Assembly (NCBI GenBank): GCA_007376205.1
Contig: VMFU01000007.1
Coordinates: forward strand, 14,118 to 78,117
DNA from: Candidatus Peregrinibacteria bacterium Gr01-1014_25
GTDB lineage: Bacteria > Patescibacteriota > Gracilibacteria > Peribacterales > Peribacteraceae
Direction of reading: 5' to 3'
DNA: 64,000 nucleotides
In this document: positions 1 to 61,031 of the stretch, one piece after another
Layout of the letters: every line of letters starts with the position of its first letter
How positions within the stretch are numbered: the first letter of the stretch is position 1
Notes under the pieces: generated by a model
Told to the model about the DNA's origin: nothing
The model's input: the letters and a program-made list of their open reading frames with translations, nothing else
The model's database searches: none
Program-made: the position numbers and the translations under genes

Positions 1-3000
1 GACGTGCGTGCCGTCATCACCGAGGTCCTCTGGGCCGGCAGCGATGTCAGCAGCAGTGACGAGTGGGTGGGGATAGGGTGTATTGAGGGTCAGGAGGGTA
101 TGGTGAGTACAGGAGGTGTAGAGCGATGTGCGGTAGGCGGTTGGACGTTGACGTCGGTCAACGGTGCGGGGCAGGAAGTAACGATCGCACGATTAACCGT
201 TGGCGCGTCGATCCCCGCTGGCAGCGAAGCGGTGATCAGCCGCATGACGCGCGAGGCGTCGCGCCTGGACGTCGATCCATTCCTTATCAGTCCCGACCTG
301 ACGCTCCCGAATACCAAGCTCCTTCTTCGGTTGCGCGATGCCTCGGGAGCCGTCGCAGACATCGTCGATGACGGAGCGGGAAGCCCGCTTGCCGGTGCGA
401 ACCCGAGTGGCGGAACCGGCCGCGCGAGCATGGAGCGCATTGATCCTCGCGCGTCCGGGACGGACGCGGCGAACTGGCGGACGGCGACCGAGAGCAGGGG
501 ATTCGATGCCGGCGCGCAGGTGATGGGAAGCCCGGGGCTTCTTGAGGAGACCGAGGTGACCGACGTAACCGAGGAAACCAAGGATGACGGAACAAGCAGT
601 TCCTCGGTCTCTTCAGTCTCTTCGGCTTCGTCGGTCTCCTGTCGCTCCGTCGTCCCCGACATCGTCATCCAATCCGGCTCTCCGCGGGGCATCGGCAAGA
701 TCACGATCAACGTGCAGGCCGTCGCCCGCGAAGGGTCGCTCCAGGGAGCTGTATGTCGCTGGGAGTATCCCGACGGATGGAAGAGCGAGAGTTGCAACCC
801 GCCCGTCCGGACGGTGCGGACGGAGGGCGCCTCCGCAATCCGCCTCGCAGTCACGGATGCATGCGGCAATCTAACGACGCGCGATCTGCCGGTGGAGGTG
901 ATCTCGCAGACCGAGGAAGAAATTGCACAGAGATGTATTCCAACAGCATTCACTGGCGTGTTGTTGAGCGAACTCTCGCCCATGGGCGATGAGTGGATCG
1001 AGCTTGTAAACCATAGCGGCATGGAGCGGATTCTCTGCAGATGGAGCATCGACGACGGCGACGGCGGCAGTGCCGCATTCGCTCTCGACGCGCAGCGCAT
1101 CGGCGATGGGGGCCGGCTGCTGCTCCCCCGGAAGCTCACGAGCATTGCCCTGAACGACGACGGCGATAGTGCGCGCCTCTTCGCGCCGTCGCTTCGCGGG
1201 CAGTCGGGAGGACTGGTCGATGTACTGACGTATGAGGACATCGAGGAGGAGCACGTTCTTGCGCGCCGCGAGGACGACGGCACGTGGCTTCAGACTCCCT
1301 ATCCGACGCCGGGCGATAGGAACCGTTTCCGCGATCCGCTCGCAGTGAGCGGCCGCGCGTCGCTCGCTATCACGGCGGCGCTTCCGAATCCCGCGGGTGA
1401 GGACGATGGCGGCGAATGGATCGAGATTACAAACATCGGCGGACGCCCGGCGTTGTTGCGGGGCATGTCGCTGATCATCCGGAGCCCTTCGGGAAGGGAA
1501 AATCGGGTGGCTCTCCCCGCGGACGCCGCCCTTGCCAGACTGGAAGTCATGGCTCTGCATGGGGATGAATTCGCTCTTCGATTGCCAAGCGACGGCGGGA
1601 CGGTTGTGCTCGTGGATACCGATGGCAACGCACTTTCCGCGCTGTCGTGGGACCACACAGGTGAGGGCAAGATCGTCCGTGCCTCCGCGGATCGGCCGGA
1701 GGTTGTTCGCGCCGAAGTCCTCGCCGTGATCGATGGTGACACCATCGACGTGCGCACGCTCGATGATCGCGGAGCCCTTGCGGATGCGATGTTGCCCGAT
1801 GTGTTTCGCGTCCGGCTTCTCGGTATTGATGCACCCGAGAACCGCGAGCCGGGGAGCGCGGAAGCGGCCGCTGCGTTGGAGTTTCTCCTCGCCGATCGTC
1901 CGCTCCATTTGCTGTTCGACCGCCAGCGCAACGACCAATACGGACGCTTCCTCGCGTACGTCGAAGACGCGGAAACGCGCGACGATATCGGACGTCTCCT
2001 CCTGCGGCGCGGTCTTGTGAGCGTGCTCACTGCATTTCCTTTCGCGCGCATGGACGACTACCGCGCGGTTGAGGAGGACGCGCGCAGAGATGCCGTCGGC
2101 ATCTGGTCCACGTTCACGCGCGGCGATATTCTCCAGAGCCGGAAAACAAACGATGTTCTGCAGACGATCGTCAGCGATGGCTTCGCCGTCGCCGCCGATC
2201 CGCCGCCCGGCATTGTCGCATCGGGAACGCTGCTCCGGCTGCGCACCGACATCAATGCTGCCTTATTCGTCTCGGTGAATTCGGGAGCGTACCAATTGTC
2301 CGATGGTGATCTGCTCATCAATGCGCCGGCAGTCATCCGCGCCTACGCGGTTGCGTCCGGCGTGCAGCCGTCGTGCGGCACGGTCGCAACCCCGGTCTGG
2401 AGCGGCCGGTACGACGTGTATCAACCCGTCGAACAGCCTGTCACTATCGGTGAAATTCTGCCGTCGCCACCGTTAGGCGAGACCGAGTGGATCGAACTCA
2501 TGACGACAGGCAGCGGGGTGGTGAGCCTTGGCGGATGGACGGTCGACGATGTGCGCGGCGGAGGCAGCCGGCCGTGGGTGATTCCGCTGGGGACGATTTT
2601 GTCGGCGAAAGAGCCCTTGCTGTTGCGGAAAGATCAGACACATCTGACGCTGAACGATAGCGGCGATGACATCTGGCTCCTTCGGCCCGATGGGAGCGTC
2701 TCCGATCATGCAAACTACGCACATCTCAAGCGCGGGCAGAGCTGGACTCCGGAGTGCGTCACGTCCACGCCGACGCCGGGCACAGAAAATCGCTGCGAAT
2801 CAACGCCGGTTTTGTCGCTTATAAAAGGGCTGAAGTCGAAAAAGACCAAGGCGAGAAAGCCGCGGACATCTCCCGCAGGATTCCCCCCGCTGCTCCCCGC
2901 TGTTTCTTGGAGCGACGGGTCGTCGCTGACAATGGATATTCGCTCTGTCGCTGATACTCGTGGAGCCCTAACCCTAGCCATTTTAATCCTTACAATGGGC

Positions 3001-3051
3001 GTACAAGGCGCGGCCCTCTGGGCAGTGCGCAGACAGGGGGTTGCTGCATGA
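1..3051 (+). CDS. Membrane-anchored extracellular nuclease with four lamin-tail-domain (LTD)-like modules and a staphylococcal-nuclease (SNase) domain; 5' end cut by the window edge
   Basis: The frame is open to nt 1. LTD-like segments are VITEVLWAGS..DEWVGI, LLSELSPMGDEWIELVNHSG, ITAALPNPAGEDDGGEWIEITNIGG and IGEILPSPPLGETEWIELMTTGSG. The SNase core (about nt 1711-2115) reads VIDGDTIDVR..VRLLGIDAPE..NDQYGRFLAYV..RRDAVGIWS. The C-terminal hydrophobic helix is LTLAILILTMGVQGAALWAV. Confidence 0.8.
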   Translation, partial: DVRAVITEVLWAGSDVSSSDEWVGIGCIEGQEGMVSTGGVERCAVGGWTLTSVNGAGQEVTIARLTVGASIPAGSEAVISRMTREASRLDVDPFLISPDLTLPNTKLLLRLRDASGAVADIVDDGAGSPLAGANPSGGTGRASMERIDPRASGTDAANWRTATESRGFDAGAQVMGSPGLLEETEVTDVTEETKDDGTSSSSVSSVSSASSVSCRSVVPDIVIQSGSPRGIGKITINVQAVAREGSLQGAVCRWEYPDGWKSESCNPPVRTVRTEGASAIRLAVTDACGNLTTRDLPVEVISQTEEEIAQRCIPTAFTGVLLSELSPMGDEWIELVNHSGMERILCRWSIDDGDGGSAAFALDAQRIGDGGRLLLPRKLTSIALNDDGDSARLFAPSLRGQSGGLVDVLTYEDIEEEHVLARREDDGTWLQTPYPTPGDRNRFRDPLAVSGRASLAITAALPNPAGEDDGGEWIEITNIGGRPALLRGMSLIIRSPSGRENRVALPADAALARLEVMALHGDEFALRLPSDGGTVVLVDTDGNALSALSWDHTGEGKIVRASADRPEVVRAEVLAVIDGDTIDVRTLDDRGALADAMLPDVFRVRLLGIDAPENREPGSAEAAAALEFLLADRPLHLLFDRQRNDQYGRFLAYVEDAETRDDIGRLLLRRGLVSVLTAFPFARMDDYRAVEEDARRDAVGIWSTFTRGDILQSRKTNDVLQTIVSDGFAVAADPPPGIVASGTLLRLRTDINAALFVSVNSGAYQLSDGDLLINAPAVIRAYAVASGVQPSCGTVATPVWSGRYDVYQPVEQPVTIGEILPSPPLGETEWIELMTTGSGVVSLGGWTVDDVRGGGSRPWVIPLGTILSAKEPLLLRKDQTHLTLNDSGDDIWLLRPDGSVSDHANYAHLKRGQSWTPECVTSTPTPGTENRCESTPVLSLIKGLKSKKTKARKPRTSPAGFPPLLPAVSWSDGSSLTMDIRSVADTRGALTLAILILTMGVQGAALWAVRRQGVAA
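544..588 (+). repeat. GAG-GAA-ACC-type 9-nt-periodic motif, in frame in the nuclease CDS (EETEVTDVTEETKDD)
   Basis: gaggagaccgaggtgaccgacgtaaccgaggaaaccaaggatgac. Confidence 0.6.
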
Positions 3052-3073
3052 CGGCGTAGGGCAGAGAAAAGCA

Positions 3074-3102
3074 TTGCCGAAAAGCCTCAAATCTGCTACA
3101 CT
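3074..3102 (+). promoter_or_regulatory. Sigma-70-like promoter TTGCCG-17-TACACT
   Basis: The hexamers are at 3074-3079 and 3097-3102. The first in-frame ATG (3110) is 7 nt after the -10 box. Confidence 0.45.
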
Positions 3103-3109
3103 AGTGGGA

Positions 3110-4261
3110 ATGCTCAAACAAAAAAACACAGCCGCATTGGGCATGGCGATGTCCCGCCTATGCGGGAGAGAGGGCAGGCTCCTCAAGCAGCAGCTGACCC
3201 CGCAGGAGGTGGCTGATCTCGAAGCGGTGATCCAGCAGCCCACCTTCAACGCTTTGGCGCCCCAGCAGCGCGTGAATGCCGTTCGCACAGCGATCAATCA
3301 GATTTTGCAGCGTCGTCCGGCGCAGCCTAACCAACCTGCACAACCCAATGCCCCGGCTGGCGGCAACAACGCTGCGGCGAATGTCGTCCCGCCGGTTGCC
3401 GCGGCCTTTATGCCGGGTGGTAACGCCCCGGCGCCTGAAAAAACACACAGTCTGCCGCGGGCGCTGACCATCGGCGCTTCGACCGCGGCGGTTCCGGCCG
3501 CGGCGGCGCTGGCAGCTACGGCATGGAGCCCAACGTTCCTCGGGCTGACCACCGGTCCCATGATTGGAGCTGGTGCAACCCTGGGATTTCCTGCTGCGGT
3601 TGGAGCGGGAGCTGGATACTGGCTCGGAAAAAAGGTTGGTCATCCGGTGGCGGGTACGGCCGCAGGGTTTGCCGCCGGCACGGTTGGCGGATACGCAATC
3701 CTCTCGCAGATTCCCGCTCTTGCCGGTTTGGGCTTGAGCGTATCGGCCTTGCCCGTCGCCGGTGCCATCGCTGCTCCGGCCATCGGCGCCGCCGGCGCCT
3801 ACGGTCTGGGCCGCGTTCACCGCTGGGCATGGGATACGCCGCATGATGTTGGAACCTGGGGAACCCTCGGCCGTGGTGTCCTCGCCCCTGCGACGCTCCT
3901 CGCGGGCCGACCGCTCAACTGGCTCCATGAGAAGGCGTGGAGCGCCAACAAATCGACGCACCGCGGAACGCAGCTGCTCCGGACGCTGATCGCGCCGGCC
4001 TCCGTACCGACGGGGATCGTGTGGAACCGCGCCGGCGTCGGCGCAATGCTCGGGGGCCTGTGGCGTGGGTTCGGATTCGACTACAAGCCCAAGCATGAGT
4101 CGGGCTGGAAGAGTTACACCGAGGCGCTTGGCTCGATTCCGGGCCGCATTATCCGCTGGCCGTTCTCCGCGATCGCCAAGGTCCCGGGCAAGGTGAAGAG
4201 CGCCTGGCACTACCTCTTCGACAAGACTGGCGGCGCATCATCTTCCGCTCCCTCGCACTAA
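3110..4261 (+). CDS. Hypothetical Gly/Ala-rich multi-pass membrane protein
   Basis: This ORF is in the 3041 frame. The first ATG (3110) lies 7 nt after a TACACT -10 box. There are several long G/A/L/I hydrophobic stretches. The antisense ORF is Arg-rich and looks spurious. The start is uncertain. Confidence 0.55.
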   Translation: MLKQKNTAALGMAMSRLCGREGRLLKQQLTPQEVADLEAVIQQPTFNALAPQQRVNAVRTAINQILQRRPAQPNQPAQPNAPAGGNNAAANVVPPVAAAFMPGGNAPAPEKTHSLPRALTIGASTAAVPAAAALAATAWSPTFLGLTTGPMIGAGATLGFPAAVGAGAGYWLGKKVGHPVAGTAAGFAAGTVGGYAILSQIPALAGLGLSVSALPVAGAIAAPAIGAAGAYGLGRVHRWAWDTPHDVGTWGTLGRGVLAPATLLAGRPLNWLHEKAWSANKSTHRGTQLLRTLIAPASVPTGIVWNRAGVGAMLGGLWRGFGFDYKPKHESGWKSYTEALGSIPGRIIRWPFSAIAKVPGKVKSAWHYLFDKTGGASSSAPSH

Positions 4262-4264
4262 ACC

Positions 4265-6949
4265 ATGCCTTTCCCCAATGCTCCCGACGGCATGAACCTT
4301 CCCGGCATGTGGGACCAAGACCCCAATCTGCCGCCGATGCCACAGGGCTTCGATACGCACGGAGCCGGTTGGCAGGGAATGCCGATGATGCCGATGGAGA
4401 TGCCCCAACCGATGGTACAGCCGGTGTGGCCGGGCATGCTGCCCGCCGAGGGCGAAGTGCCCTTCGAGACGCCGCTCTCCGGTCGCATGGACGCGCGCAT
4501 CCCCGGAACGCTCGAGCAGGCCAACCTGCACCGCCTCGGCGTCGAATCGCAGCATGCGGTGATGGGCGGCGAGATCAACCAGCTGGCGATGCACGAGTGG
4601 AACGCCCGTCCGTGGATGGCATATCCGTTCCTCGCGCAGCGCCTGACGCCCAGTCCCGCCCTCGCCGCGCTCGAAGAGTGGTATGCGGTGGCGTCACAGG
4701 CGGGAGACCCGCGGATGGGCGACGCGTTCGCCCAGCAGTGGGCGGTGGAGAATCCGGAGATGGCCGCGCTCGTCCGTCAGGAAATCCTGGCGCTCGGCCG
4801 AGGGCTGGGCGACGTCCAGCAGGTGCGCACGAAAACCGCCGAACATCTGCGCTCGCTCAAGGAGGATCGCGCCGGTTTGAGCTCGCTCGAAGACAACCTG
4901 CGCAAGGGCAAGGAGTTCATCGTCGACGATTTCCGCAACCACCCGATGACGAGCGTCGCGGTCGTCGTCGCGGGCATCATGCTCTACAAGATGCTCAAGG
5001 GCACGCGTGCCGGAAAATTCCTCGGCATCGGCGCGGGCGTCCTCGTCATCAGCACATTCCTGAAAGATCGCTACGGCATTCAGATCGGCGAGAAGGCCGC
5101 GCAGTTCGCGGAGGGCGCGTTCGGCAAGAAAGCCGGCGACGCCGTCCGTAACTTCCGCGACACGCTGCGCCGTCCGTTCGTCGGACCGGAAGGACAAGGC
5201 TCCGCCGTGGGCTTCCTGCAGGAGCGCATGGGCATCAACAGCAACGAAGAGAAGGTCGTTTTCCCCGCGCTCATCCGCCAGAACCCCCGCGAATTCCTTG
5301 CGTGGTACGACACCGCGCGCATGTGGCAGCACGCCGGCGTGCCTGCGACGGCCGATCTTCCGCCCGGTCTGAAAAAGGCGCTTTCCGGCCCGAGCGTTCC
5401 CACGTGGTTCAAGTCCCTGACGAAGAGCCAGAGGGTCGAGATCGTTCTCCGCGTCGCCGACAAGATGTTCGGGCACATCGCGCGCAGCGCGCCCGGCATC
5501 GATCCGGTCGCGTACGTCATGACGCGCTATGTCGAGGGCACGCAGTTCCAGGACGAGTACGGTCAGTGGCATAACTCGGTTATGAACGCGCAGCCCGGCG
5601 ACGAGCTGTACCAGATGCAGATGTTCGATCCGACGATGCGCGACATCGCGGGAGGGTTCCAGAAGCAGACGCGCAACGGCGCGAAGTCGATGGACTTCCT
5701 CGACATCCTTCTTATGGAGATGCGCGACAACGACTGGAACGATTTGAAGACCTACAACGGTGCCGGTTGGAGCGCCAACGAGGTCTGGAAGGGGACGAAA
5801 GCCGGCGCGACGGCCGCGGTCGAGTTCGGCCAGGACTGGGTCGCGCGGCCGCTCATCAACCTGTTCACGACGCATATCCCCAGCTTCTGGAAGAACGATG
5901 TGAAGCCGTTCATGGACCGCAATGGCATCACGCAGGAGAACTTCGAGAAGCAGTTCATGAAGGCGTACCGCGAAGCGAAAGCGGCGGGCAAAGATGTCGT
6001 GACCTTCGCGGAGGGGACGACGGTATGGCGTGCACTCAAGAGCATGGGCATTCTCACCTTCAATCAGGCAACGCGCGCATGGGAAATGTCCGCAGATCAG
6101 GCCGAACGTCTGGCGGTATACCTTGAGTGGCAGCGCATTGAACAGCGCGCGAATGCCGCAAAATTCCAGGAGTGGCGCCAGGACGTGTGGGATGCGAATG
6201 CATCTCAATTGCGCCCTCAAGTGCTTCCTGGCGGCATTACGGTTCCGCCCGGCCGTCGGGGATTTTTGGTCAATCCCAATGTGCCGGCAACGCGACAGAT
6301 GTGGGACCTGCTCGTGGAAATTCGCGTCATTCAGGATGGACTGCAAACAGTGCAGGGTCCGGCGGGGGAGACGGTCATCACCATCAGCGATGCCGACGCA
6401 TCACGTCTGAATGCGTGGCTGATTGCGGTGAATTCTTTCCTATTTACAACTGCTGGCCAGGGCGCCAGTAATGGTCAGGCCGGAGGAGGCCTGCCGAACA
6501 ATGTTGCCGGCAGCGGCCCTGCAGGCGGCGTGAACCAGCCGGCGAATGCGCAGACTCAACCGAATATTGCAGGAACCCATAACAAGCTGTCACCCGAGCG
6601 CGTCCAGCAACTCATCGGCGCGCTCCAATCCCGCATCGATGCTCTCGGATTCACATCAGTGAAATTGCGTCCCAGCGGATCCCATCCGGGCGATATCGAA
6701 ATTTGTCAGGCGGATGTGAACTTCAATGCGGCACAGCCCGAACTGATCGCGCGTACGAATGCCGATAATCTCGCAGTGGATATTGCAAACGCGGCACAAC
6801 TGCAAGCGATGGCTTCGGCTACTCACCAAGCTTATGCGCGATGGCTCCGTCACTTCAGCACCGAACAGCGGCGTCTTGATACAAATAAGAATCTCTTCGA
6901 TGCAAGGATACCAACGACGGGCGAGCCGGCCCCGCCTGTAGACCTCTGA
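4265..6949 (+). CDS. Hypothetical 894-aa protein with a Pro/Met/Gln-rich N-terminus and two predicted TM helices
   Basis: It starts 3 nt after the previous stop. The N-terminus is MPFPNAPDGMNLPGMWDQDPNLPPMPQG..MPMMPMEMPQPMVQPVWPGM. The hydrophobic segments are MTSVAVVVAGIMLYKML and FLGIGAGVLVISTFL. Amino-acid composition is otherwise ordinary. I recognise no family. Confidence 0.65.
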   Translation: MPFPNAPDGMNLPGMWDQDPNLPPMPQGFDTHGAGWQGMPMMPMEMPQPMVQPVWPGMLPAEGEVPFETPLSGRMDARIPGTLEQANLHRLGVESQHAVMGGEINQLAMHEWNARPWMAYPFLAQRLTPSPALAALEEWYAVASQAGDPRMGDAFAQQWAVENPEMAALVRQEILALGRGLGDVQQVRTKTAEHLRSLKEDRAGLSSLEDNLRKGKEFIVDDFRNHPMTSVAVVVAGIMLYKMLKGTRAGKFLGIGAGVLVISTFLKDRYGIQIGEKAAQFAEGAFGKKAGDAVRNFRDTLRRPFVGPEGQGSAVGFLQERMGINSNEEKVVFPALIRQNPREFLAWYDTARMWQHAGVPATADLPPGLKKALSGPSVPTWFKSLTKSQRVEIVLRVADKMFGHIARSAPGIDPVAYVMTRYVEGTQFQDEYGQWHNSVMNAQPGDELYQMQMFDPTMRDIAGGFQKQTRNGAKSMDFLDILLMEMRDNDWNDLKTYNGAGWSANEVWKGTKAGATAAVEFGQDWVARPLINLFTTHIPSFWKNDVKPFMDRNGITQENFEKQFMKAYREAKAAGKDVVTFAEGTTVWRALKSMGILTFNQATRAWEMSADQAERLAVYLEWQRIEQRANAAKFQEWRQDVWDANASQLRPQVLPGGITVPPGRRGFLVNPNVPATRQMWDLLVEIRVIQDGLQTVQGPAGETVITISDADASRLNAWLIAVNSFLFTTAGQGASNGQAGGGLPNNVAGSGPAGGVNQPANAQTQPNIAGTHNKLSPERVQQLIGALQSRIDALGFTSVKLRPSGSHPGDIEICQADVNFNAAQPELIARTNADNLAVDIANAAQLQAMASATHQAYARWLRHFSTEQRRLDTNKNLFDARIPTTGEPAPPVDL

Positions 6950-6954
6950 AGACA

Positions 6955-6989
6955 TCAAAAAAACCCGAACGCGCTTGCGCGCGCTCGGG
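6955..6989 (-). terminator. Intrinsic terminator shared by convergent genes
   Basis: The GC-rich hairpin is CCCGAACGCGC-ttgc-GCGCGCTCGGG (11 bp, one mismatch). On the minus strand it is followed by TTTTTTT (plus-strand A-tract 6957-6963). Confidence 0.7.
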
Positions 6990-6995
6990 CAATAG

Positions 6996-7670: not shown

Positions 7671-7770
7671 ACGCGTTTCTCCGCTTGTTGGACATCCGGT
7701 CATGCACCCACAATGGGTGCCGCGCCTATGCTGAAAGGAGCTTCGGACATAAAAGCAGAATAGGTGTTAT

Positions 7771-7787
7771 TTGTCAATATTTGACAA
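7771..7787. promoter_or_regulatory. Perfect inverted repeat TTGTCAA-TAT-TTGACAA overlapping the -35 box in a divergent intergenic region
   Basis: The 7-bp arms with a 3-nt spacer were read directly from the sequence. Confidence 0.4.
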
Positions 7788-7808
7788 AATCATGAAAATC
7801 ATGATAAT
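7781..7808 (+). promoter_or_regulatory. Sigma-70-like promoter TTGACA-16-GATAAT
   Basis: The hexamers are at 7781-7786 and 7803-7808, in an AT-rich island upstream of the 7883 gene. Confidence 0.6.
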
Positions 7809-7882
7809 TGGCTAGTTTGCAGGAGGCCTGCAGACGCTGTGGTCCTTCGCAGCAGCGGTTGTTCTCAAACGGAGAAAGTCCC

Positions 7883-8563: not shown

Positions 8564-8583
8564 TGTAACAACTCTGCTGCGTG

Positions 8584-10773: not shown

Positions 10774-10779
10774 CGAATG

Positions 10780-16446: not shown

Positions 16447-16480
16447 CGTCTCCTTGGTTTCATCGGTCTCTTTGGCCTCC
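16447..16480 (-). repeat. The same motif in a 44-bp convergent intergenic spacer
   Basis: The minus strand reads GAGGCCAAAGAGACCGATGAAACCAAGGAGACG, starting 4 nt after the FNR-like stop. Confidence 0.6.
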
Positions 16481-16483
16481 TTA

Positions 16484-17215: not shown

Positions 17216-18343
17216 TTACGTCGATTGCCGCATGACCGCTGCGAATTCGTCGAACAGGTATGCGGCGTCCTGCGGGCCCGGCGCCGCTTCCGGATGGAAT
17301 TGTACCGCGAAGAAGCGTCCGTTCCTGTGACGGATGCCCTCGATCGTTCCGTCATTCGCATTGCGGAACCAGACGGACCAATCCTTGGGGAGCTCCTCCT
17401 TCACGGCGAAGCCGTGATTCTGCGAGGTGATGATGCAGCGCTGCGATCCCGCCTCCACGCACGGCTGGTTCGCGCTGCGGTGGCCGTACTTGAGCTTGAA
17501 CGTGTCGCCGCCGATGGCGAGCGCCATGAGCTGGTTGCCCAGGCAGATGCCGAACGTCGGAATATCCTTCTCCAGCGCGCGCTGCACCGCGCGGATCGTG
17601 GGGGTGCACTGCTTCGGATCCCCGGGACCGTTGCTGATGAACACGCCGTCAATGTGTCCGTCGTAGCCGTCCAGGTCGAAATTCCACGGGACCCGTACGA
17701 CACGCATTCCGCGCTCAAGGAGGCTGCGCAGAATGTTGCGCTTCATGCCGCAGTCGTACGCGATCACCGTAGGTGATCGCGAGCTTTGAGCATCTGCAAT
17801 TGGTTCGCCTTCCGTCGGCTCATACACCATCACCTCCTTGCAGCTTACTTCTGCTACCAGGTTTCGGAGATTCGGATCCTCGGTTTCCTCGGTTTCATCG
17901 GTTGCCTTGGTCTCCTGTCGTATGCGTCCCAACATCACCCCATGCTCGCGCAGGCGCTTGGTGAGCGCGCGGGTATCGATCCCGGTGATCCCCGGGATGC
18001 CGTGATGTTCCAGCCAGTTATGCAACGAGCTCACGGATGCATGATGGCTGTGGCACGCGCTCGCCTGGGCGACGATCACGCCACGCACGTGAATGTTTTC
18101 GCTCTCCAGGAACGCCGCGAATCCTCGGCCATCCTTCTCCTGGGTCGGCACCCCGTAGTTCCCGATGAGCGGATACGTGAACACGAGGATCTGCCCGCGG
18201 TAGCTGGGGTCGGTCAGGCTCTCCGGATACCCCACCATGCCCGTCGTGAACACGACTTCGCCGTCGGTGTCGACAGCCGCGCCGAAGGTTTCCCCTTCGA
18301 ACGTCGTCCCGTCGGTAAGCGCAAGCGATGCCATCCCTCGCAT
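17216..18343 (-). CDS. carA: Carbamoyl-phosphate synthase small (glutaminase) subunit
   Basis: The N-terminal domain is LALTDGTTFEGETFGA..GEVVFTTGMVGYPESLTDPSYRGQILVFTYPLIGNYGV. The GATase active site is FGICLGNQL, followed by VQFHPEA. The interdomain linker carries an inserted ETKATDETEETEDPN. Confidence 0.92.
   Translation of the reverse strand: MRGMASLALTDGTTFEGETFGAAVDTDGEVVFTTGMVGYPESLTDPSYRGQILVFTYPLIGNYGVPTQEKDGRGFAAFLESENIHVRGVIVAQASACHSHHASVSSLHNWLEHHGIPGITGIDTRALTKRLREHGVMLGRIRQETKATDETEETEDPNLRNLVAEVSCKEVMVYEPTEGEPIADAQSSRSPTVIAYDCGMKRNILRSLLERGMRVVRVPWNFDLDGYDGHIDGVFISNGPGDPKQCTPTIRAVQRALEKDIPTFGICLGNQLMALAIGGDTFKLKYGHRSANQPCVEAGSQRCIITSQNHGFAVKEELPKDWSVWFRNANDGTIEGIRHRNGRFFAVQFHPEAAPGPQDAAYLFDEFAAVMRQST
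17878..17915 (-). repeat. The same motif in frame in the carA linker (ETKATDETEETED)
   Basis: The minus strand reads GAGACCAAGGCAACCGATGAAACCGAGGAAACCGAGG. Confidence 0.6.
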
Positions 18344-28437: not shown

Positions 28438-28473
28438 CGTTGCGATGGATGTTTCTCCTCCCTTGGCACGGGT

Positions 28474-28502
28474 TTGCATGTTGCCCAGGGCTTCCCTATA
28501 GT
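28474..28502 (+). promoter_or_regulatory. Candidate fusA promoter TTGCAT-17-TATAGT
   Basis: The hexamers are at 28474-28479 and 28497-28502. It lies downstream of the terminator at 28405-28437 and upstream of ATG 28583. Confidence 0.5.
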
Positions 28503-28536
28503 CCCTCTACGTTTTCTTCAAGGAAACCCCAGCGTA

Positions 28537-28560
28537 TTCGGTTTCCTCGGTTTCTTCGGT
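28537..28560 (-). repeat. The same motif in the fusA 5' leader, antisense to fusA
   Basis: The plus strand reads ttcggtttcctcggtttcttcggt, so the minus strand reads ACCGAAGAAACCGAGGAAACCGAA. Confidence 0.6.
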
Positions 28561-28582
28561 TAGCCCGAATTCCTCCTCTTCT

Positions 28583-30685
<2,103 letters not shown>

Positions 30686-44458: not shown

Positions 44459-46294
44459 ATGCCTTCGTGGAGAAAAAGCCATCTCCTTGCCCTGATCGCG
44501 TTCTGCGCAGCGAGCTTGCTTGCCGCAGGAGTGACGCTGCGCGCGCAGGTGACGGGCACGAAGGACTGCACGGGATTGCCGTATGGCACCGCCGGGTGTC
44601 CGTTGCTCGAAGACGAAGATGAGGAAGAGGAGATCGACCCGCCGCTGCACTGCGGCGACAATTTCCTGCAAGAGAAAGAGGGCGAGGAATGCGACAACGG
44701 CTACGTGCACAACGGGCGAAGCAACTGCACAGATGACTGTCGTCTACTCTACTGCGGTGACGGGGAAATCAGCCCGCAGATCGGCGAGCTGTGCGAACCC
44801 GAGGCAACATTCGTCTACGCCAAGGATTCGAAGGGGGAGTATCTCCTGCTGCCGGAATACGAGACGCCCGAGTGTGGACGCATCTGCACCGCGCCGACGT
44901 GCGTTGTGGTCAAGGATGCCGTCGAATGCACGGGGGGATGCAAACCGATGTTCCTGCCCGCGTGCCCCGTGGAGGGGGCGGGGGGCGGTTCGAGTCTCAA
45001 AGGAGCAGCTCCGTCATCGTCGTCAGGATCGCAGACGAGCTCGGGCGGCGGCGCTTCGGCGGCGCCATCCATCTGCGGCAACGGCAAAGTCGACCCGGGT
45101 GAGCAGTGCGACGATGGGAACACCAGTGACCGCGACGGCTGCACGAATGCATGCAAATTGCCATTCTGCGGTGACGGTATCGTGCACGCCGGCGAGGATT
45201 GCGACGATGGAAACCGTACCGACCGCGACGGTTGCACGAATGCGTGCACGCTTCCGGGGTGTGGTGATGGAATCGTCCATGGCGGTGAGCAGTGCGATGA
45301 CGGCAACAGCAACGAACAGGACGGTTGCACGAACGCGTGCAAGATCCCCATGTGTGGCGACGGCATCCTCCGCATTGGCGAGGAGTGCGATGACGGGAAC
45401 GGCAATGATCGCGATGCCTGTACGAATATCTGCAAGCTCCCCGTCTGCGGCGATGGCATCATGCACAACGGCGAGGAGTGCGATGACGGCAATCGCAACG
45501 ACCGCGACGGCTGCACGAACGCATGTCGGTCCCCCGCGTGCGGCGACGCCATTCTGCAGACGGGCGAGGAATGTGACGATGGGAACGATGCCGACGAGGA
45601 CGCGTGCACATCGCTCTGCAGGCAGCCACGATGCGGAGACGGTTTCGTCCAGCGCGGCGAGGAATGCGACGACGCGAACGCTGACACGCGAGACGGGTGC
45701 AACGTGTGCCGAAGGACGATCTGCGGCGATGGCATCACGCAGTACTGGGAATCGTGTGATGACGGCAACCGCTCGGACCAGGACAGCTGCACGAATCGTT
45801 GCACGCTCACGTCCTGCGGCGACGGCATCGTGCAGGCAGGTGAAGAATGCGATGACGGGAATCTGGATGATGCGGATGAATGTTCCACGCTCTGCAAGAT
45901 TCCTGGGTGCGGGAACGGCGTCGTTGAGCGAGGCGAAGATTGCGACAGCGGGCGGGAAAACAACGATGCCGCACCGAATGCGTGCCGGAGCGACTGCCGC
46001 GCGGCGCGTTGCGGCGACAACGTGGTCGATCGCGGAGAGGAATGCGACGGAGGTGATGCATGCGGCATCGACTGCAAGCGAATGTCAGCCGCCACGGTGG
46101 TAACGACGAATGGCGACGCAAGCGGCGCCGTGCCTGTTGCAGCCGCGGCAATGGGAACGACGGGCATCGGATCAGTGTTGGTGTGGCTGTTCTTCCGTCA
46201 TCGGATTCGCGCCTTCTTCGCACGCCGGCGGCATGTGGTCTCCATCGATGACATTCCGCTCGATGAAATCGAAATGCCGTGGCGCCACTGGTAA
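44459..46294 (+). CDS. Cysteine-rich repeat surface protein (Myxococcus-type CGDG..CDDGN repeats) with a signal peptide and a C-terminal TM anchor
   Basis: The signal is LLALIAFCAASLLAAGVTLRAQ. About 12 copies of CGDG(I/F)(V/L)xxGExCDDGNxxDxDGCTNxCxxP are present. The C-terminal helix is TGIGSVLVWLFF. Confidence 0.75.
   Translation: MPSWRKSHLLALIAFCAASLLAAGVTLRAQVTGTKDCTGLPYGTAGCPLLEDEDEEEEIDPPLHCGDNFLQEKEGEECDNGYVHNGRSNCTDDCRLLYCGDGEISPQIGELCEPEATFVYAKDSKGEYLLLPEYETPECGRICTAPTCVVVKDAVECTGGCKPMFLPACPVEGAGGGSSLKGAAPSSSSGSQTSSGGGASAAPSICGNGKVDPGEQCDDGNTSDRDGCTNACKLPFCGDGIVHAGEDCDDGNRTDRDGCTNACTLPGCGDGIVHGGEQCDDGNSNEQDGCTNACKIPMCGDGILRIGEECDDGNGNDRDACTNICKLPVCGDGIMHNGEECDDGNRNDRDGCTNACRSPACGDAILQTGEECDDGNDADEDACTSLCRQPRCGDGFVQRGEECDDANADTRDGCNVCRRTICGDGITQYWESCDDGNRSDQDSCTNRCTLTSCGDGIVQAGEECDDGNLDDADECSTLCKIPGCGNGVVERGEDCDSGRENNDAAPNACRSDCRAARCGDNVVDRGEECDGGDACGIDCKRMSAATVVTTNGDASGAVPVAAAAMGTTGIGSVLVWLFFRHRIRAFFARRRHVVSIDDIPLDEIEMPWRHW
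44651..46078 (+). repeat. In-frame tandem array of ~93-bp (31-aa) cysteine-rich repeats inside the CDS
   Basis: TGCGGCGA(C/T)GG...TGCGA(C/T)GA(C/T)GG(G/C)AA recurs roughly every 93 nt from 45074 to 46078. Two more divergent copies lie at 44651-44790. Confidence 0.8.
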
Positions 46295-53919: not shown

Positions 53920-53980
53920 GGCGGGAAGTCTAAGAGAGGCCGCCTGGGCCGTCGAGGGCGCTGTGAAGGCGAATTGTCAT

Positions 53981-54001
53981 CTATGGCTATGCAGAGCCAA
54001 A
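53981..54001. promoter_or_regulatory. Motif CTATGGCT-atgcag-AGCCAAA upstream of the PrsW gene
   Basis: The flanks are shared with the element at 55361-55379. TGGCT/AGCCA form a dyad. Confidence 0.3.
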
Positions 54002-54026
54002 AAAATATGCTATACTACGGAGATTC

Positions 54027-55352
54027 ATGGATAGCCTCCTGACAAGCCACACGGCGGTCGTCCTCCTCGCGGTCGGGGCTCTCGCAGCCTTCGATCTCTC
54101 GCAGCGCCTGCGCCACCGCAACTTCCACCTGCTCTTCGCGGTGACCTTCGGATCGATCTGCTCCGCGGCGATCATCGCGGTGGGAAAGGCACTCCTGACG
54201 CCGGGTGCGGCGGTGAACGCATACCTGGCGACGCTCGTCGTCCTCCTGCTCGTTCTCGGATGGAAAGCGCTCTTCGGCCCCTGGGAACCGGAGGCCAAGG
54301 CCGCGGTCCTCGGAACGTTCCTGTTTTGGATCGGGCTGATCATCCTGGGCGGACAGAATCCCAAGGAGCGCTACGCGCACCTCATCGCAGGCGCCGTCGC
54401 GTTCGTGCCGGCGTTGATCTGGTGCTCTCTGTTCCTGAAGTATCACACCGAGCGGCGTGCCGCCGTCCTGCTCCTGTTTCTGTCGGGCATGCTTGCGACG
54501 GTGCCGATCCTCTTCTACGACGCGCTCGTCCGCCATCACATCGAATTGTCGCTCTTCCTCGGGCGCATCGTGCCGGAGGGATTCCATCAGACGACCGACG
54601 CGTTCGTCCGCGGCTCGCTCGGCCTGGAGGGGTTGCGTGCCGTGCTCGCCGCGAGCTTCGGGGCGTTCCTCGTGGTCGGCCTGATCGAAGAGTGCAGCAA
54701 GTACTGGGTCGTCCGCCGCAGTGGAGCGCGCCTGTTCTCGAGTATCGACGACGTCCTCCAGCTCTCGATCATCGCGGCGATCGGCTTCTCGTTCGCGGAG
54801 AACATCGTAAACCCCACGTACTTCCAGAGCTTCGTGCAGCAGTACCTCCTCCAGCCCGGCAAGACGGATGCTCTCGGGTTCGTCAGCAACGTGCTCGGCC
54901 GTTCGGTGCTTACCAGCATGGTGCACATCGTTTCGACGGGCGTCATGGGCTACTTCCTGGGACTCGCGATCTTCGCCCATCCCTACCTCCTCGAGCGCCG
55001 CTCCTCGGGCGCGCGTCTGGGCATCTCCGGCGTGCTCGCGCGCGTGCTGCGCGTCAGGGAGGAGCGCATCTTCCGCGGCGAGATGGTCGTGCAAGGCATT
55101 CTCATCGCGGTCATGCTGCACGGGACGTTCAACTTCCTCGTCACCGTCAGCGACTTGCTGCCCTCGCAGCCCCAGACCGTCGGCGATCTGCTCGGCGCGA
55201 CCGCTCCGGCCGTCCTCCAGTCCATTCCGCTCCTGCTCATCCCCGCGCTCCTCTACGTCGTGGGGGGATTCTGGCTGTTGACGTGGCTCTTCCTTCTTAA
55301 GGAGAATGCGAAGGAGCGCGTGCGCGTCGATATCGAGGAAGTCGGGGCATGA
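54027..55352 (+). CDS. PrsW-family intramembrane metalloprotease
   Basis: The motifs are EECSKYW (E-E-x-x-K), FSFAENI (F-x-x-x-E-N), HIVSTGVMGYF and HGTFNF, set within a multi-pass membrane protein. Confidence 0.7.
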   Translation: MDSLLTSHTAVVLLAVGALAAFDLSQRLRHRNFHLLFAVTFGSICSAAIIAVGKALLTPGAAVNAYLATLVVLLLVLGWKALFGPWEPEAKAAVLGTFLFWIGLIILGGQNPKERYAHLIAGAVAFVPALIWCSLFLKYHTERRAAVLLLFLSGMLATVPILFYDALVRHHIELSLFLGRIVPEGFHQTTDAFVRGSLGLEGLRAVLAASFGAFLVVGLIEECSKYWVVRRSGARLFSSIDDVLQLSIIAAIGFSFAENIVNPTYFQSFVQQYLLQPGKTDALGFVSNVLGRSVLTSMVHIVSTGVMGYFLGLAIFAHPYLLERRSSGARLGISGVLARVLRVREERIFRGEMVVQGILIAVMLHGTFNFLVTVSDLLPSQPQTVGDLLGATAPAVLQSIPLLLIPALLYVVGGFWLLTWLFLLKENAKERVRVDIEEVGA

Positions 55353-55360
55353 ATATTGCT

Positions 55361-55379
55361 CTATGGCTGAATAGCCAAA
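55361..55379. promoter_or_regulatory. Motif CTATGGCT-gaat-AGCCAAA upstream of the S41 peptidase gene
   Basis: It has the same CTATGGCT...AGCCAAA flanks as 53981-54001. Confidence 0.3.
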
Positions 55380-55473
55380 GGGTTTGACGATGTGAATTTT
55401 CAAGATTTCTTGGATCGTGAATATATATTTGTTGTTTCCTTTCCATATCTATCTTGCCTACAATGCCGCGGTC

Positions 55474-57108
55474 ATGCGCATTGTTCGTGCCACGATTGGC
55501 TGGTCGCTGACGCTCGCCACGGCGCTGGCGTTCGCGCTGCCCGGTCCATCCGCGTTCGCCGCGACGTACTGGTTCGACCGGCTTCCCCAGAGCGACGCGC
55601 CCATCAGTCGTGGGGATTTCATTCGCGCCGCCATCGATGCTCTCGAGATTCCGACCGATGCCCGCACGTCTTTGCCCTACCGGCGCCCCGTGCCGTCCGC
55701 CATCAAGCCTTTCGTTGCCGCGGCCTATACGCGCGGCGCGCTCAAGCATTTCGGTGATGAACTGTTCCCTGGCCGCCCGATCACGACGGGCGATGCGCTC
55801 CAGATGCTTGTGGCGATCCAGGGTCTGGATGCCAAGGGCAAGTCGCGCACTTTTCCGGATGTCCCGCCGGGCAGCGCACTCGATAACGCCGTGCAGGCGG
55901 CGCTCGAAAAAGGATGGATCGAACCGGGGCGTCCGAACCGCTTCGGCGTCGATCGCGTGATGTCCGGCAAAGCGACGCGCATCCTCCTGCGCAAGGTGCT
56001 CGGCGAGGATGACGATACGGGAGAGAAGATCGTCATCCGCTTCACGAACAACGTCTCGCGCAAGCCGTTGCCGCGCCAGGAACTCCTGCAATCCATCTGG
56101 TACCTGATCAATGAGCAGTACCTCTATAAGGAGAAGATCACGGACGATGCCGTGCTCAAGGCGGCGGAGGCGCTGGTGCAGAGCCTGGAGGATCCGTACA
56201 CCGCCTACGTCCGTCCGGCCAAAACGGAGGTGTACCAGAGCCGCATTCAGGGGCGCGTGACGGGAATCGGGGCGCAGGTCGAGTACACCGACAACGCGCT
56301 GGTCATCGTTGCGCCGTTCCCTAATTCGCCGGCGAAGAAGGCCGGCCTGCAGGCCGGCGACCAGATTCTGTTCGCCGATGGCGTCAGCCTGGCCGGAATG
56401 ACCGTGGAGGGGGCGGTGAGCAAAGTACGCGGTCCAGAGGGCTCGACCGTGGTCCTCACGGTGCGTAGGGGGTCGCAGACGTTCGACGTCTCCGTCGTTC
56501 GCGCCGTGGTGGCGGTTCCGGAAATCGATACCTCGTGGATGCAGGGCATCGCCGTGGTCCATCTGTTCCAGTTCGGCGAGCGAACGGAGCGGGAGCTGCG
56601 GCCGACGCTGCAGGAGATCGCCCGTCAGGAACCCCGCGGCATCGTCCTTGATCTGCGCAACAATCCGGGAGGACTCCTCGATGCCGCCGAAGTCGTGTTG
56701 AGCAATTTCCTGCCCCAGGGATCGGTCGTCGCGCGCATCGTCGGGCGCGATGGTGAGTACGCCGAAGAGACGGACGACCCGCCGGTCATTCCGGAGAAGA
56801 CCCCCGTCGTCGTGCTAGTGAACAAGGGGTCTGCGAGCGCGTCGGAGATCGTCGCAGGCGCGTTGCAGGATGCGGGCCGTGCCGTCCTCGTCGGCGAGAA
56901 AACGTTCGGCAAGGGCACGGTGCAGCAAATCATCGACTTCCACGACGGATCCAGCCTGCGCATGACCGTCGCCGAATGGCTGACGCCAAGCGGCCGCAAG
57001 ATTAATAAAGAGGGCATCGAACCGGACTTCACGGTGCGCGGCGATGAGGAGCGCGACGCGCAGCTCGTGAAAGCGCTGGATCTGATCAGCGCCCGCACGA
57101 TTCGATAG
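55474..57108 (+). CDS. S41 C-terminal processing peptidase with N-terminal SLH-like repeats and a PDZ domain
   Basis: The PDZ region is GIGAQVEY..FPNSPAKKAGLQAGDQILFADG. The catalytic region is VVLVNKGSASASEIVAGALQD..LVGEKTFGKGTVQ. SLH-like segments lie near FPDVPPGSALDNAVQAALEKGWI. Confidence 0.88.
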   Translation: MRIVRATIGWSLTLATALAFALPGPSAFAATYWFDRLPQSDAPISRGDFIRAAIDALEIPTDARTSLPYRRPVPSAIKPFVAAAYTRGALKHFGDELFPGRPITTGDALQMLVAIQGLDAKGKSRTFPDVPPGSALDNAVQAALEKGWIEPGRPNRFGVDRVMSGKATRILLRKVLGEDDDTGEKIVIRFTNNVSRKPLPRQELLQSIWYLINEQYLYKEKITDDAVLKAAEALVQSLEDPYTAYVRPAKTEVYQSRIQGRVTGIGAQVEYTDNALVIVAPFPNSPAKKAGLQAGDQILFADGVSLAGMTVEGAVSKVRGPEGSTVVLTVRRGSQTFDVSVVRAVVAVPEIDTSWMQGIAVVHLFQFGERTERELRPTLQEIARQEPRGIVLDLRNNPGGLLDAAEVVLSNFLPQGSVVARIVGRDGEYAEETDDPPVIPEKTPVVVLVNKGSASASEIVAGALQDAGRAVLVGEKTFGKGTVQQIIDFHDGSSLRMTVAEWLTPSGRKINKEGIEPDFTVRGDEERDAQLVKALDLISARTIR

Positions 57109-57128
57109 TCGTTCCGGCAAAGAAACGT

Positions 57129-57160
57129 CCTCGGTTTCATCGGTCTCACCGGTCTCCTCC
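57129..57160 (-). repeat. The same motif directly after the rpsU stop
   Basis: The minus strand reads GGAGGAGACCGGTGAGACCGATGAAACCGAGG. It is in phase with rpsU after TAA-TGA. Confidence 0.6.
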
Positions 57161-57165
57161 CGTCA

Positions 57166-57381
57166 TTACATGTTCGAGTAGAACTTCTTCTTGCGGTTCG
57201 CCGTGCGGAATTCCTCCCGCTTCAGCGCGCGCAGGCGGCCAAGACGCTTGTTTGGCTTCTTCTTGCGGACGTTGCGCTCGCGCATCATCTTGATGAGGCC
57301 CGATTTCTGGACCTGTTGTTTGAACCGCTGCTGGACGCGGTCGTTGGATTCGTCGGCCTTGCGGATAGCGTAGATAGCCAT
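57166..57381 (-). CDS. rpsU: 30S ribosomal protein S21
   Basis: 71 aa, basic. The sequence reads ..ESNDRVQQRFKQQVQKSGLIKMMRERNVRKKKPNKRLGRLRALKRE. The ATG is at 57381. Confidence 0.9.
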   Translation of the reverse strand: MAIYAIRKADESNDRVQQRFKQQVQKSGLIKMMRERNVRKKKPNKRLGRLRALKREEFRTANRKKKFYSNM

Positions 57382-57444
57382 AGAAAGCCTGGAGAGGGTA
57401 GAGGAGTGGATTGGTGGGCGCAAGGCTTTTCTCGCCGCCTGTGA

Positions 57445-59517
<2,073 letters not shown>

Positions 59518-59556
59518 GAGACCAATGAGACCGAGGAGTCCGAGGAAACCGACCGG
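59518..59556 (+). repeat. The same motif starting at the first nucleotide after the gyrB stop codon
   Basis: gagaccaatgagaccgaggagtccgaggaaaccgaccgg. It is in phase with gyrB and would read ETNETEESEETDR. Confidence 0.6.
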
Positions 59557-59565
59557 AACGTTCTG

Positions 59566-60909
59566 CTAATCTTCATCCACCGCCCCGAATCCGTCCTTCA
59601 GCACGTAGCGGTCCAGGTTCTTCTTGCCGATGAGCTCGACGACCGCTGGGAGCGCCTCGTCGAAGGGCATCTCCTTCTGCTTGCCGGCCTTCATGTCGCG
59701 CAGGATCACCGTGTTCTTCAGCACTTCCATCTTGCCGAGCAGCAGGCAGTACTTCACGTCGAACCGGTCCGCCAGGCGCATCTGGCTCTTCAAGCTGGCC
59801 TCGCCGAGAGCGCCGAGCGTGTGAACGCCCCGGTCCCGCAGCGTCGCGATGAGCCGCAGACACTGCTTCTTCGCCTCGGGGCCGAGCTGTGCGACGAAGA
59901 TGTCCACCTGATCCTTGTTGGGCGCCTGAATGCCCGCCTCCTTCATGTGCCAGACGATGCGTTCCATGCCGCAAGCGAATCCGACACCGGGCGTCGGCTT
60001 GCCGCCGAGGAGCTCGATCAGCGCGTCGTACCGTCCTCCGCCGCCGACGGCGTTCTGTGCGCCTTCCGATCTGTCCCAGTACTCGAAGACCGTCTGCGTG
60101 TAGTAATCGAGACCGCGCACCAGTCCGGCATTCTCGACAAACGGCACGCCGAGCTCCTGGAGATACTCCAGCACCGTTGCGTGATACAGCTTGCTGTCGT
60201 CGCCTACGAACTGCGCGAGCGTCGGAGCGTTCTTCAAAAGAATCCGCGTATCCTCCTCCTTCGAGTCGAGCAGCCGCAGAGGACTGGTCTGGAGCCGCTT
60301 GCGGTCGAGCTCGGGGAGGTGGCGCTCTTTGCCGATGAAGTACTCCTTGAGCGCCTCGGCGAATGCCTTGCGGTTCTCGGCGACGCCGATGTTATTGATC
60401 TGCAGCGTGAGGCGGTCGAGGATCTTCAAGTCCGCGAGGATGTTCGAGAGCACGTGGATCATCTGCGCGTCGAGGCTGGGATCCTTCAGGCCAATGATCT
60501 CGAAGTCGAACTGGTGGAACTGGCGGTAGCGACCCTTCTGCGGACGGTCGTGACGGAAGCACTGGCCGATCGCGTACAGTTCGACCGGCTGCGGGAGCTG
60601 GTCCATCGCGTGCTCAATGTACGAGCGGCAGATGCCCGCCGTGAATTCCGGGCGGAGCGCGAAATCCTGGTCGGCCTTCTCCGCGTGCGGCGAGCCGACG
60701 ACGAAGAGCTCCTTCTCGACGATGTCCGTGTGTGCGCCGATGCCGCGCTCAAAAATGCCGCGGTACTCGAACATCGGTGTGTCGATGCGCTTGTAGCCGG
60801 CCTGGCGTGCGCGGTGACGCACGGCCTTCTTGATGAAGGTCATGTAGACGTGGTCCTCGGGAAGGACGTCGTGCGTGCCTTTGGGAGTACGGAAGAGGGG
60901 ATCGGCCAT
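59566..60909 (-). CDS. hisS: Histidine--tRNA ligase
   Basis: Conserved blocks are PKGTHDVLPED, KRIDTPMFEY, LRPEFTAGICR, CFRHDRPQKGRYRQFHQFDFE and GGGRYD. Confidence 0.95.
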   Translation of the reverse strand: MADPLFRTPKGTHDVLPEDHVYMTFIKKAVRHRARQAGYKRIDTPMFEYRGIFERGIGAHTDIVEKELFVVGSPHAEKADQDFALRPEFTAGICRSYIEHAMDQLPQPVELYAIGQCFRHDRPQKGRYRQFHQFDFEIIGLKDPSLDAQMIHVLSNILADLKILDRLTLQINNIGVAENRKAFAEALKEYFIGKERHLPELDRKRLQTSPLRLLDSKEEDTRILLKNAPTLAQFVGDDSKLYHATVLEYLQELGVPFVENAGLVRGLDYYTQTVFEYWDRSEGAQNAVGGGGRYDALIELLGGKPTPGVGFACGMERIVWHMKEAGIQAPNKDQVDIFVAQLGPEAKKQCLRLIATLRDRGVHTLGALGEASLKSQMRLADRFDVKYCLLLGKMEVLKNTVILRDMKAGKQKEMPFDEALPAVVELIGKKNLDRYVLKDGFGAVDED

Positions 60910-61017
60910 AATGAGGTGTGCGGAAAAGTGTACCAGCCGCGCACCGCATCGGGAAGGGTGAATATCAAGTGTTCAGCGCTGCAATTCGACGACCTAAGCA
61001 AAGCAACACCGTTAGCG

Positions 61018-61031
61018 CCTCGGTTTCTTCG
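61018..61031 (-). repeat. Short copy of the same motif 3' of the 61068 gene
   Basis: The plus strand reads cctcggtttcttcg, so the minus strand reads CGAAGAAACCGAGG. Confidence 0.4.

Follow-up and report, generated by a model that had tools for sequence, protein, structure and literature searches.

Nine-nucleotide tandem arrays dispersed in a Peribacteria genome are probably orphaned arms of small hairpin cassettes

Tandem arrays in the window

The stretch of DNA analysed here (the window) comprises 64,000 nucleotides (nt) of contig C4 (C4:14118-78117) from a genome that its GyrB relatives place in Candidatus Peribacteria (G000), a lineage of the candidate phyla radiation (CPR). The genome is 1.12 Mb long, 62% G+C and 99.9% complete. 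Short tandem arrays of a 9-nt unit, (RAR-GAR-ACC)n, lie in several spacers of the window and within the genes for a secreted nuclease, CarA and GyrB. A search for two GARGARACC units with at most two mismatches gave 12 matches in the window, where 0.11 are expected from shuffles. Tandem Repeats Finder (TRF) places period-9 arrays at all the main sites picked out by an earlier sequence-only reading of this DNA and returns a unit of 9 nt, not 7. Seven of the eight copies given by that reading are solid, with at least two to three units each; the eighth, at 61018-61031, has only about 1.5 units and is marginal (Table 1).

We designate the purine-rich arm (5') S and the inverted pyrimidine arm (3') S'. 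The window holds one pair (544-641), one mini-pair in the fusA leader and five solo arms, none of which carries an open reading frame (ORF). The pair folds as a hairpin (-45.5 and -49.8 kcal/mol, z -3.1 and -4.3), and solo arms are unstructured (z -0.6 to +1.7). The motif had been described as not palindromic, a description that overlooked the inverted partner at 606-641, which pairs with 544-588, and the one-unit partner in the fusA leader. A gene-bearing full copy, described below, was missed as well.

All three copies reported to lie in frame within genes (nuclease, carA and gyrB) do so, and each occupies an inter-domain linker or a variable insertion. The carA array encodes amino acids 143-157, between Pfam domains at 7-141 and 196-368; the same-genus sister genome (G001) has an unrelated linker of 39 nt at that position, similar in length to the array. 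An acidic insertion in GyrB is general in Peribacteria, with differing sequences. In the genome studied the gyrB linker is made of two repeat families in succession, the 9-mer array and then an AAAGCCC heptamer array that belongs to the genome's heptamer population. The proposal that coding copies always occupy the Glu/Thr/Asp frame fails: the partner in the nuclease reads as Ser/Val, SSVSSVSSASSVS, and further ORF-internal copies in the genome read GDR/GNQ and GFL, some of them in ORFs from a crude caller.

At two of the non-coding sites, other genomes have other sequences. The fusA-leader mini hairpin lies downstream of a conserved TATAGT -10 box; the fusA 5' untranslated region (UTR) has an unrelated small hairpin in G001 and a heptamer-array hairpin in G010, which represents another genus. 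The spacer 3' of the 71-amino-acid ORF has a plain terminator-like hairpin in G001 and again a heptamer-array hairpin in G010.

Table 1. Copies of the 9-nt repeat in the window, with an adjoining heptamer array
Feature	Position	Strand	Context
S arm, 5 units, GAGGAGACC type	544-588	+	In-frame EETEVTDVTEETKDD, inter-domain linker of secreted LTD/SNase nuclease
S' arm, inverted partner of 544-588	606-641	-	Read as SSVSSVSSASSVS; same single nuclease ORF
Solo S arm	16447-16482	-	Fills 44-nt convergent spacer, 1-3 nt past stop of FNR-like gene; alone unstructured
S arm in carA	17873-17917	-	In-frame QETKATDETEETEDP, CPSase_sm_chain/GATase linker
Mini hairpin, fusA 5' UTR	28520-28566	-	S unit on + strand (28520-28528) and 3-unit S' arm (28540-28566)
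Solo S arm	57133-57159	-	6 nt past stop of 71-amino-acid ORF (rpsU in the sequence-only reading), convergent spacer
S arm in gyrB	59197-59250	+	In-frame (17 residues), variable acidic insertion
Heptamer array (AAAGCCC) x 4.7, 33 nt	59262-59294	+	In-frame (11 residues), same gyrB linker
Solo S arm	59515-59559	+	Starts on gyrB TAG stop, fills 48-nt convergent spacer before hisS
Marginal 1.5-unit remnant	61018-61031	-	37 nt past stop of ORF 61068-61658

The repeats are copies at the DNA level

A search for three RANGDDACC units with at most three mismatches identified 52 (RAR-GAR-ACC)n arrays across the genome. Their consensus is R-A-R-G-A-R-A-C-C, with positions 2, 4, 8 and 9 invariant at 87-98%, and 38 of the 52 have the modal length of 4-5 units. 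A strict form of the pattern has 14 matches against 0 for a reversed-pattern control. Enrichment of the motif is far above chance, in the window as in the genome.

At least 23 of the 52 arrays lie entirely between predicted genes, in a genome that is about 13% non-coding (P 4e-8), and the non-coding share rises to about 35 of 52 once gene starts are inspected; these assignments are limited by gene predictions made with a crude program of our own. In ten arrays that read E-E-T, ACC accounts for 34 of the 36 Thr codons and ACG for none, whereas genome-wide ACG makes up 59% of Thr codons and ACC 29% (P ~2e-16 for the excess of ACC). Because ACC dominates within the arrays while the genome prefers ACG, the repeat is driven at the DNA level: the 9-base repeats are real DNA copies and not a product of Glu/Thr codon usage.

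In phase-variable contingency simple sequence repeats, changes of copy number alter the reading frame or the spacing of a promoter; within genes, a 9-nt unit cannot shift the frame, and arrays of any copy number stay in frame. Depending on which of the six frames is taken, between 33 and 51 of the 52 arrays are free of stop codons. The idea that copies survive only where they yield an acidic linker is not supported, since most are non-coding and the translated ones are read in several frames.

Distribution among relatives

We searched 30 relatives, which are 75-80% identical at best; a metagenome scan for closer relatives gave none above 79% GyrB identity. The 9-mer motif is present only in G010 (26 matches) and G018 (3 matches). 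The sister genome G001, which we took in its entirety and aligned at orthologous sites, has 0 motif matches. At every site where the two flanks could be mapped, the array is missing from G001 as a block, and a very short spacer or unrelated sequence stands in its place; this includes the carA, gyrB and spacer sites for which an orthologue comparison had been recommended. These empty orthologous sites and the codon test agree with the earlier suggestion of a small element that spreads.

TRF finds 106 period-7 arrays in the same genome, and the 9-mer therefore belongs, as one family among others, to a large population of short tandem repeats. The corresponding numbers are 7 in G001 and 64 in 368 kb of G010.

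In four regions (C12:1965-3205, C12:235210-236238, C1:21718-22806 and C8:73321-77976) three to five different heptamer arrays cluster in long open frames. Some of these frames are membrane-protein-like; the frames are either true genes loaded with repeats or spurious ORFs that span islands of repeats.

A gene-bearing cassette

One locus outside the window, C10:29600-30152, holds a full cassette. It consists of an S array (29600-29644), about 100 nt, an ORF of 118 amino acids (29747-30107) and an inverted S' array (30117-30152). The arm duplex has an energy of -50.1 kcal/mol against -28.3 +/- 4.0 for shuffled sequences, and 31 arm-arm base pairs form in the minimum-free-energy fold of the 566-nt element. 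The ORF encodes a four-helix-bundle protein (TIGR02436, E 6e-30; PF05635, "23S_rRNA_IVP", 1e-31) whose nearest Protein Data Bank (PDB) entry is 2GSC (Xcc0516), a pentamer according to published work. The protein also matches NF033474 (Avd) with 30 bits and E 4e-7, below the family cut-off of 80.

The genome has two other PF05635 (IVP) genes, flanked by inverted heptamer arrays AGCTNTG/CTCANAG and TTAGGGA/TCCCTAA. This brings the count of PF05635 genes to 3, compared with 0 in G001, 24 in G010 and 3 in G018. Inverted tandem arrays flank all nine such genes inspected in G010 and, in 16 other genomes of the class, about 18 of the 20 loci. Among plasmid "four helix bundle" genes from Nostoc, Anabaena and Riemerella, four of six are clearly flanked by inverted arrays, and the arrays in Pseudanabaena are direct. 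Overall, inverted tandem arrays of 7-9-nt units flank nearly all of about 35 IVP genes inspected in relatives, cyanobacteria and Bacteroidota.

Some of these four-helix-bundle genes with long heptamer arrays are housed in CRISPR-cas operons, on a Pseudanabaena galeata plasmid (cas6/cas4) and in Anabaena sp. 90 (before cas4). The two heptamer arrays at the Pseudanabaena cas-operon locus are direct, not inverted.

The 52 arrays and the three IVP genes of the genome studied all lie in spacers, a UTR or coding sequences, and none is in an rRNA gene. The 23S rRNA gene itself (C12:327022-330945, outside the window) is about 1 kb longer than the model. An insertion of about 620 nt near its GTAAGTTCCGACC region (~329360-329985) has no long ORF and no IVP ORF and ends in a (TCCCGAA)n heptamer array.

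Protein clade and repeat unit change together

In a maximum-likelihood tree of 32 IVP proteins, the nine with 9-nt arms, drawn from seven genomes, form one clade (ultrafast bootstrap/SH-like approximate likelihood ratio test (SH-aLRT) 96/96). Mapping the 7, 8 and 9 period labels on the tree takes 4 changes against 10.4 when shuffled, with 0 of 200 shuffles as low, and in 0 of 500 shuffles were the labels clustered. The periods had, however, been read by eye ahead of tree construction, and near-copies inflate the clustering, a caution that counts against the interpretation proposed below. Proteins with like units (TTAGGGA, AGCTWTG and TAGGTGN) also pair across genera.

A prediction test was provided by G011, whose gene in the 9-nt clade has RARGAATCC arms. 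The pattern (RARGAATCC)3 has 48 matches in G011, 5 in G018, 0 in the other 28 relatives and 0 in the genome studied. The G011 matches are mostly convergent +/- pairs about 40 nt apart that begin on or just past stop codons, that of gyrB included, and a T-run often comes after them. G011 has two full cassettes at a distance of 7.6 kb; they share about 90% identity across the gene, the arms and about 40 nt past one arm, a similarity that indicates recent duplication. Repeat period and unit thus track the protein clade across genomes, and the dispersed arrays of each genome match the arms of its resident gene.

A GTTC..GAAC-GGAYTTTTTGGCCTCT module, a small hairpin with a T-run, is conserved with cassettes of the 9-nt clade. 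It lies outside the S arm in G011 (C3:130310-130356 and the matching end of the second copy) and inside it in G010 (C19, after the S arm) and G000 (C10:29640-29690).

Arm polarity and the orientation of solo copies

In the genome studied, a partner lies no more than 150 nt away from 16 of the 52 arrays, where the null rate is 1%. The full cassette accounts for another two, and all remaining arrays are solo. The family thus takes the form of one full cassette, some 7-8 convergent pairs that lack a gene and around 30 arms on their own. All pairs in G000, G010 and G011 are convergent, with the purine-rich arm first on either strand. In co-directional spacers about ten S arms lie beside stops and about 11 S' arms beside starts, with one clear exception. 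This tally matches the orientation pattern noticed earlier in the window, sense after stop codons and antisense in the fusA leader. Heptamer arrays behave likewise, the G-rich arm lying near stops and the C-rich arm near starts (19 versus 5). For these, orientation was scored by GC skew, a method restricted to heptamers, as it fails on AAG-type 9-mer units, in which G ~ C.

An inverted repeat is identical on both strands, and a surviving half consequently lies in the sense orientation past a stop and antisense before a start. Fixed arm polarity therefore explains the sense-after-stop, antisense-before-start rule. A strand-specific recognition signal at 3' ends, as had been suggested, is not the best reading of an orientation that follows from hairpin geometry.

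Outside the window, at C9:39237-39281, a CTATACTC -10 box and a tRNA-like stretch enclose a 9-mer array; over 80 nt this stretch shares 97.5% identity with G001. The array would lie within the leader of a tRNA precursor, in S' orientation.

Proposed origin of the arrays

We consider that the (RAR-GAR-ACC)n arrays are probably the arms, for the most part orphaned, of small and probably selfish hairpin cassettes of the intervening-sequence (IVS) type. The full form comprises a purine-rich arm of 4-5 units of 9 nt, an S23p/IVP four-helix-bundle gene of about 120 amino acids and an inverted array. Such cassettes would enter spacers or disordered linkers as units and then decay, losing first the ORF to leave a hairpin and then one of the two arms. 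Inside genes they would be tolerated because the unit is nearly stop-free in six frames. By analogy with rRNA IVS elements, the transcribed stems are probably cut by RNase III, and the pentameric protein may bind the repeat units.

Several observations weigh against this interpretation. The gyrB 3' spacer has a solo S arm in G000, a full S-IVP gene-S' cassette directly past the gyrB stop in G010 and an S/S' pair of the TCC unit type in G011, and it is empty in G001 and G018. A site occupied in three genera and empty in the closest relative needs recurrent insertion at a hot spot, overwriting in place, or ancestral presence with a wholesale purge in G001. Mobility is deduced solely from presence and absence and from the ~90%-identical duplicate pair in G011. 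Orphan arms outnumber the single cognate gene by about 50 to 1. The cassette has no linked transposase, integrase or reverse transcriptase. A comparison of filled with empty sites showed no target-site duplications, although at the divergence of G001 (~78% nucleotide identity) they are hard to judge.

A more far-reaching version, which we regard as doubtful, has the four-helix-bundle protein act as a sequence-specific reader of its own arms, through which arrays at gene borders would be copied or overwritten. One pentamer subunit might contact each 7- or 9-nt unit, a speculation that fits both the usual length of 4-5 units and the way in which the period changes along with the protein. If true, this would be a transposase-free, protein-guided spread of DNA in which a recognition code of unit and period co-evolves with the protein.

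Alternative explanations

The arrays might instead be cis-elements of the host kept by selection, such as terminators or insulators after stops, RNase III sites or sites for host proteins, with the cassette gene exploiting or supplying them. We think this unlikely. S arms do start 0-7 nt past stops and S' arms do abut the -10 boxes of leaderless genes, but hairpin geometry alone accounts for this position rule. A resemblance to intrinsic terminators is seen in the T-run after many G011 pairs and after the S' arm of the G000 cassette, and the G001 rpsU 3' spacer has an ordinary terminator-like hairpin where G000 has an array; solo arms, however, have no such structure, and G001, the closest relative, manages without all of the arrays. 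Moreover, the same spacers hold unrelated unit families in other genomes, and copies occur inside coding regions.

It is very unlikely, in our estimation, that the arrays came first, as landing pads or hot spots made by another repeat-generating process, and that four-helix-bundle genes home into the loops of hairpins already present. Such an order of events would suit the vast excess of orphan arrays over genes, the state of the gyrB 3' site, which has one arm, two arms or the complete cassette according to genome, and the several heptamer families of G000 that have no resident gene with matching arms. It sits poorly with the co-variation of protein clade and arm unit and period across genera, and with the lack of arrays in a genome that lacks the gene (G001, with 0 IVP genes). 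The duplicated G011 cassettes, which share the gene, the arms and about 40 nt past one arm, fit co-transfer instead.

Independent microsatellites of no common origin, arising by replication slippage in acidic-linker codons and purine-rich spacers, are an extremely improbable source, already largely refuted by the codon test and the census of relatives: the acidic variable insertion at this place in all Peribacteria GyrB, a unit length that is a multiple of 3 and the perfection of some arrays would all agree with slippage, but nearly all Thr residues are encoded by ACC, a minor codon, no fewer than 23 of the 52 arrays do not code, one and the same unit occurs at 52 loci in G000 and at 0 in its sister genome, and the inverted pairs and gene-bearing copy are left unexplained.

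Relation to known systems

The cassette interpretation has its closest parallel in the ORF-bearing IVSs of 23S rRNA genes in Coxiella burnetii and Leptospira, in which a PF05635/TIGR02436 ORF likewise occupies the loop of a stem with inverted termini (PMC4990558). The S23p IVS of Coxiella burnetii has two to three tandem GACAGAT heptamers in an arm, in strain-variable number, and its stem is cut by RNase III (PMC4990558). Tandem short units in the arm are thus a shared trait, and the genome studied also has an RNase III gene (rnc, C4:5116-5502). Unlike the rRNA elements, those described here have 9-nt units, lie in mRNA spacers, a 5' UTR and coding linkers, and are accompanied by dozens of dispersed ORF-less and single-arm copies; RNase III processing would apply to them by analogy.

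Short tandem repeats of the same general kind are dispersed in cyanobacterial genomes as short tandemly repeated repetitive (STRR) sequences. Dispersed heptamer arrays have been described in Xanthomonas (GGGAATC, with 70 convergent inverted pairs) and Nostoc (GGGGAYT), where they were stated to be unlinked to mobile elements (PMC4692102), and TAACTGA arrays in Beggiatoaceae, Cyanobacteria and Bacteroidetes (PMC4679880). Like the arrays analysed here, these consist of short units repeated at least three times at many, mostly intergenic loci, often by start or stop codons (PMC4692102, PMC4679880). They number 100 or more loci and are patchy among relatives, and G000 also has about 100 heptamer arrays, including GGGAATC-like ones. 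The differences are the period of 9 and the link to a four-helix-bundle gene, which neither PMC4692102 nor PMC4679880 reports; neither paper reports any connection with mobile elements.

Systems of repetitive extragenic palindromes (REP), their hairpin-forming doublets (REPINs) and REP-associated tyrosine transposases (RAYTs) similarly combine many short hairpin-forming non-coding copies with a rare matching gene locus in the spacers of compact genomes. Here, by contrast, each arm is a tandem repeat and not part of a unique palindrome, and the only gene between cognate arms is the four-helix-bundle ORF, which is not a known transposase; no Y1 (HUH) domain was seen, though PF01797 was not searched. 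Rickettsia palindromic elements (RPEs) are palindromic selfish DNA tolerated in frame in essential genes, at surface or linker positions. They are units of about 100-150 bp of unique sequence, not tandem 9-mers, and are not known to have an associated gene. The likeness to the G000 arrays is in in-frame tolerance; there is no sequence relation. The C10 protein, finally, shares a homologous fold, that of a pentamer-forming four-helix bundle, with the accessory protein Avd of diversity-generating retroelements (DGRs); its NF033474 match is weak and sub-threshold. The DGR hallmarks are absent: no reverse transcriptase lies next to the gene, no template/variable repeat pair was found, and neither G000 nor G011 has an RVT_1 match.

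Our literature search gave no paper that joins S23p/IVP genes to dispersed short tandem arrays, although S23p-bearing rRNA IVSs and dispersed heptamer arrays have each been published separately. The new points are a 9-nt branch that has a protein clade to itself and the cross-genome unit-matching test; also specific to this case are the codon test, the finding of arms translated in several frames (in the essential genes gyrB and carA, and in the nuclease) and the geometric account of orientation. If the interpretation is true, two long-unexplained items unite in one testable system, namely the four-helix-bundle/IVS family, whose function has been a puzzle since the 1990s, and dispersed tandem repeats such as STRR, GGGAATC and TAACTGA. 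It also carries a warning for annotation: in CPR genomes, what looks like an evolved protein linker (acidic or rich in Ser/Val) or like regulatory sequence in an odd 3' or 5' spacer can be repeat DNA instead.

Rejected candidates and other features

The units contain AAGGAG or CUCCUU, and a Shine-Dalgarno (SD) or anti-SD mimic was considered and rejected, as it leaves the copies between convergent genes and in coding sequences unexplained. The 16S 3' end is ordinary (...GCCTCCTTACC) and keeps CCUCCUUA. An SD-like 4-mer of any kind precedes only about 11% of gene starts in the genome, and the upstream 20 nt are rich in C and T (for example, window 28440-28582). A peak of TATACT or TACACT at -12..-7 implies that many mRNAs are leaderless.

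Read-through or recoding of TAG was likewise rejected. Three arrays begin TAGGAGACC; in two the TA(G) is an opposite-strand -10 box (CTATAC) conserved in G001, and in the third TAG is the canonical gyrB stop after NLDI. A role of the S' arm as a -35 element (TTGGTC) was dropped because convergent spacers need no promoter, and a CsrA sponge (GGA every 9 nt) was dropped on the same ground.

At 45072-45552 the window also contains a 93-nt tandem repeat (~4.9 copies, 72% matches) that encodes Cys-rich CGDGIVHNGEECDDGN-type modules in an ORF of 611 amino acids.

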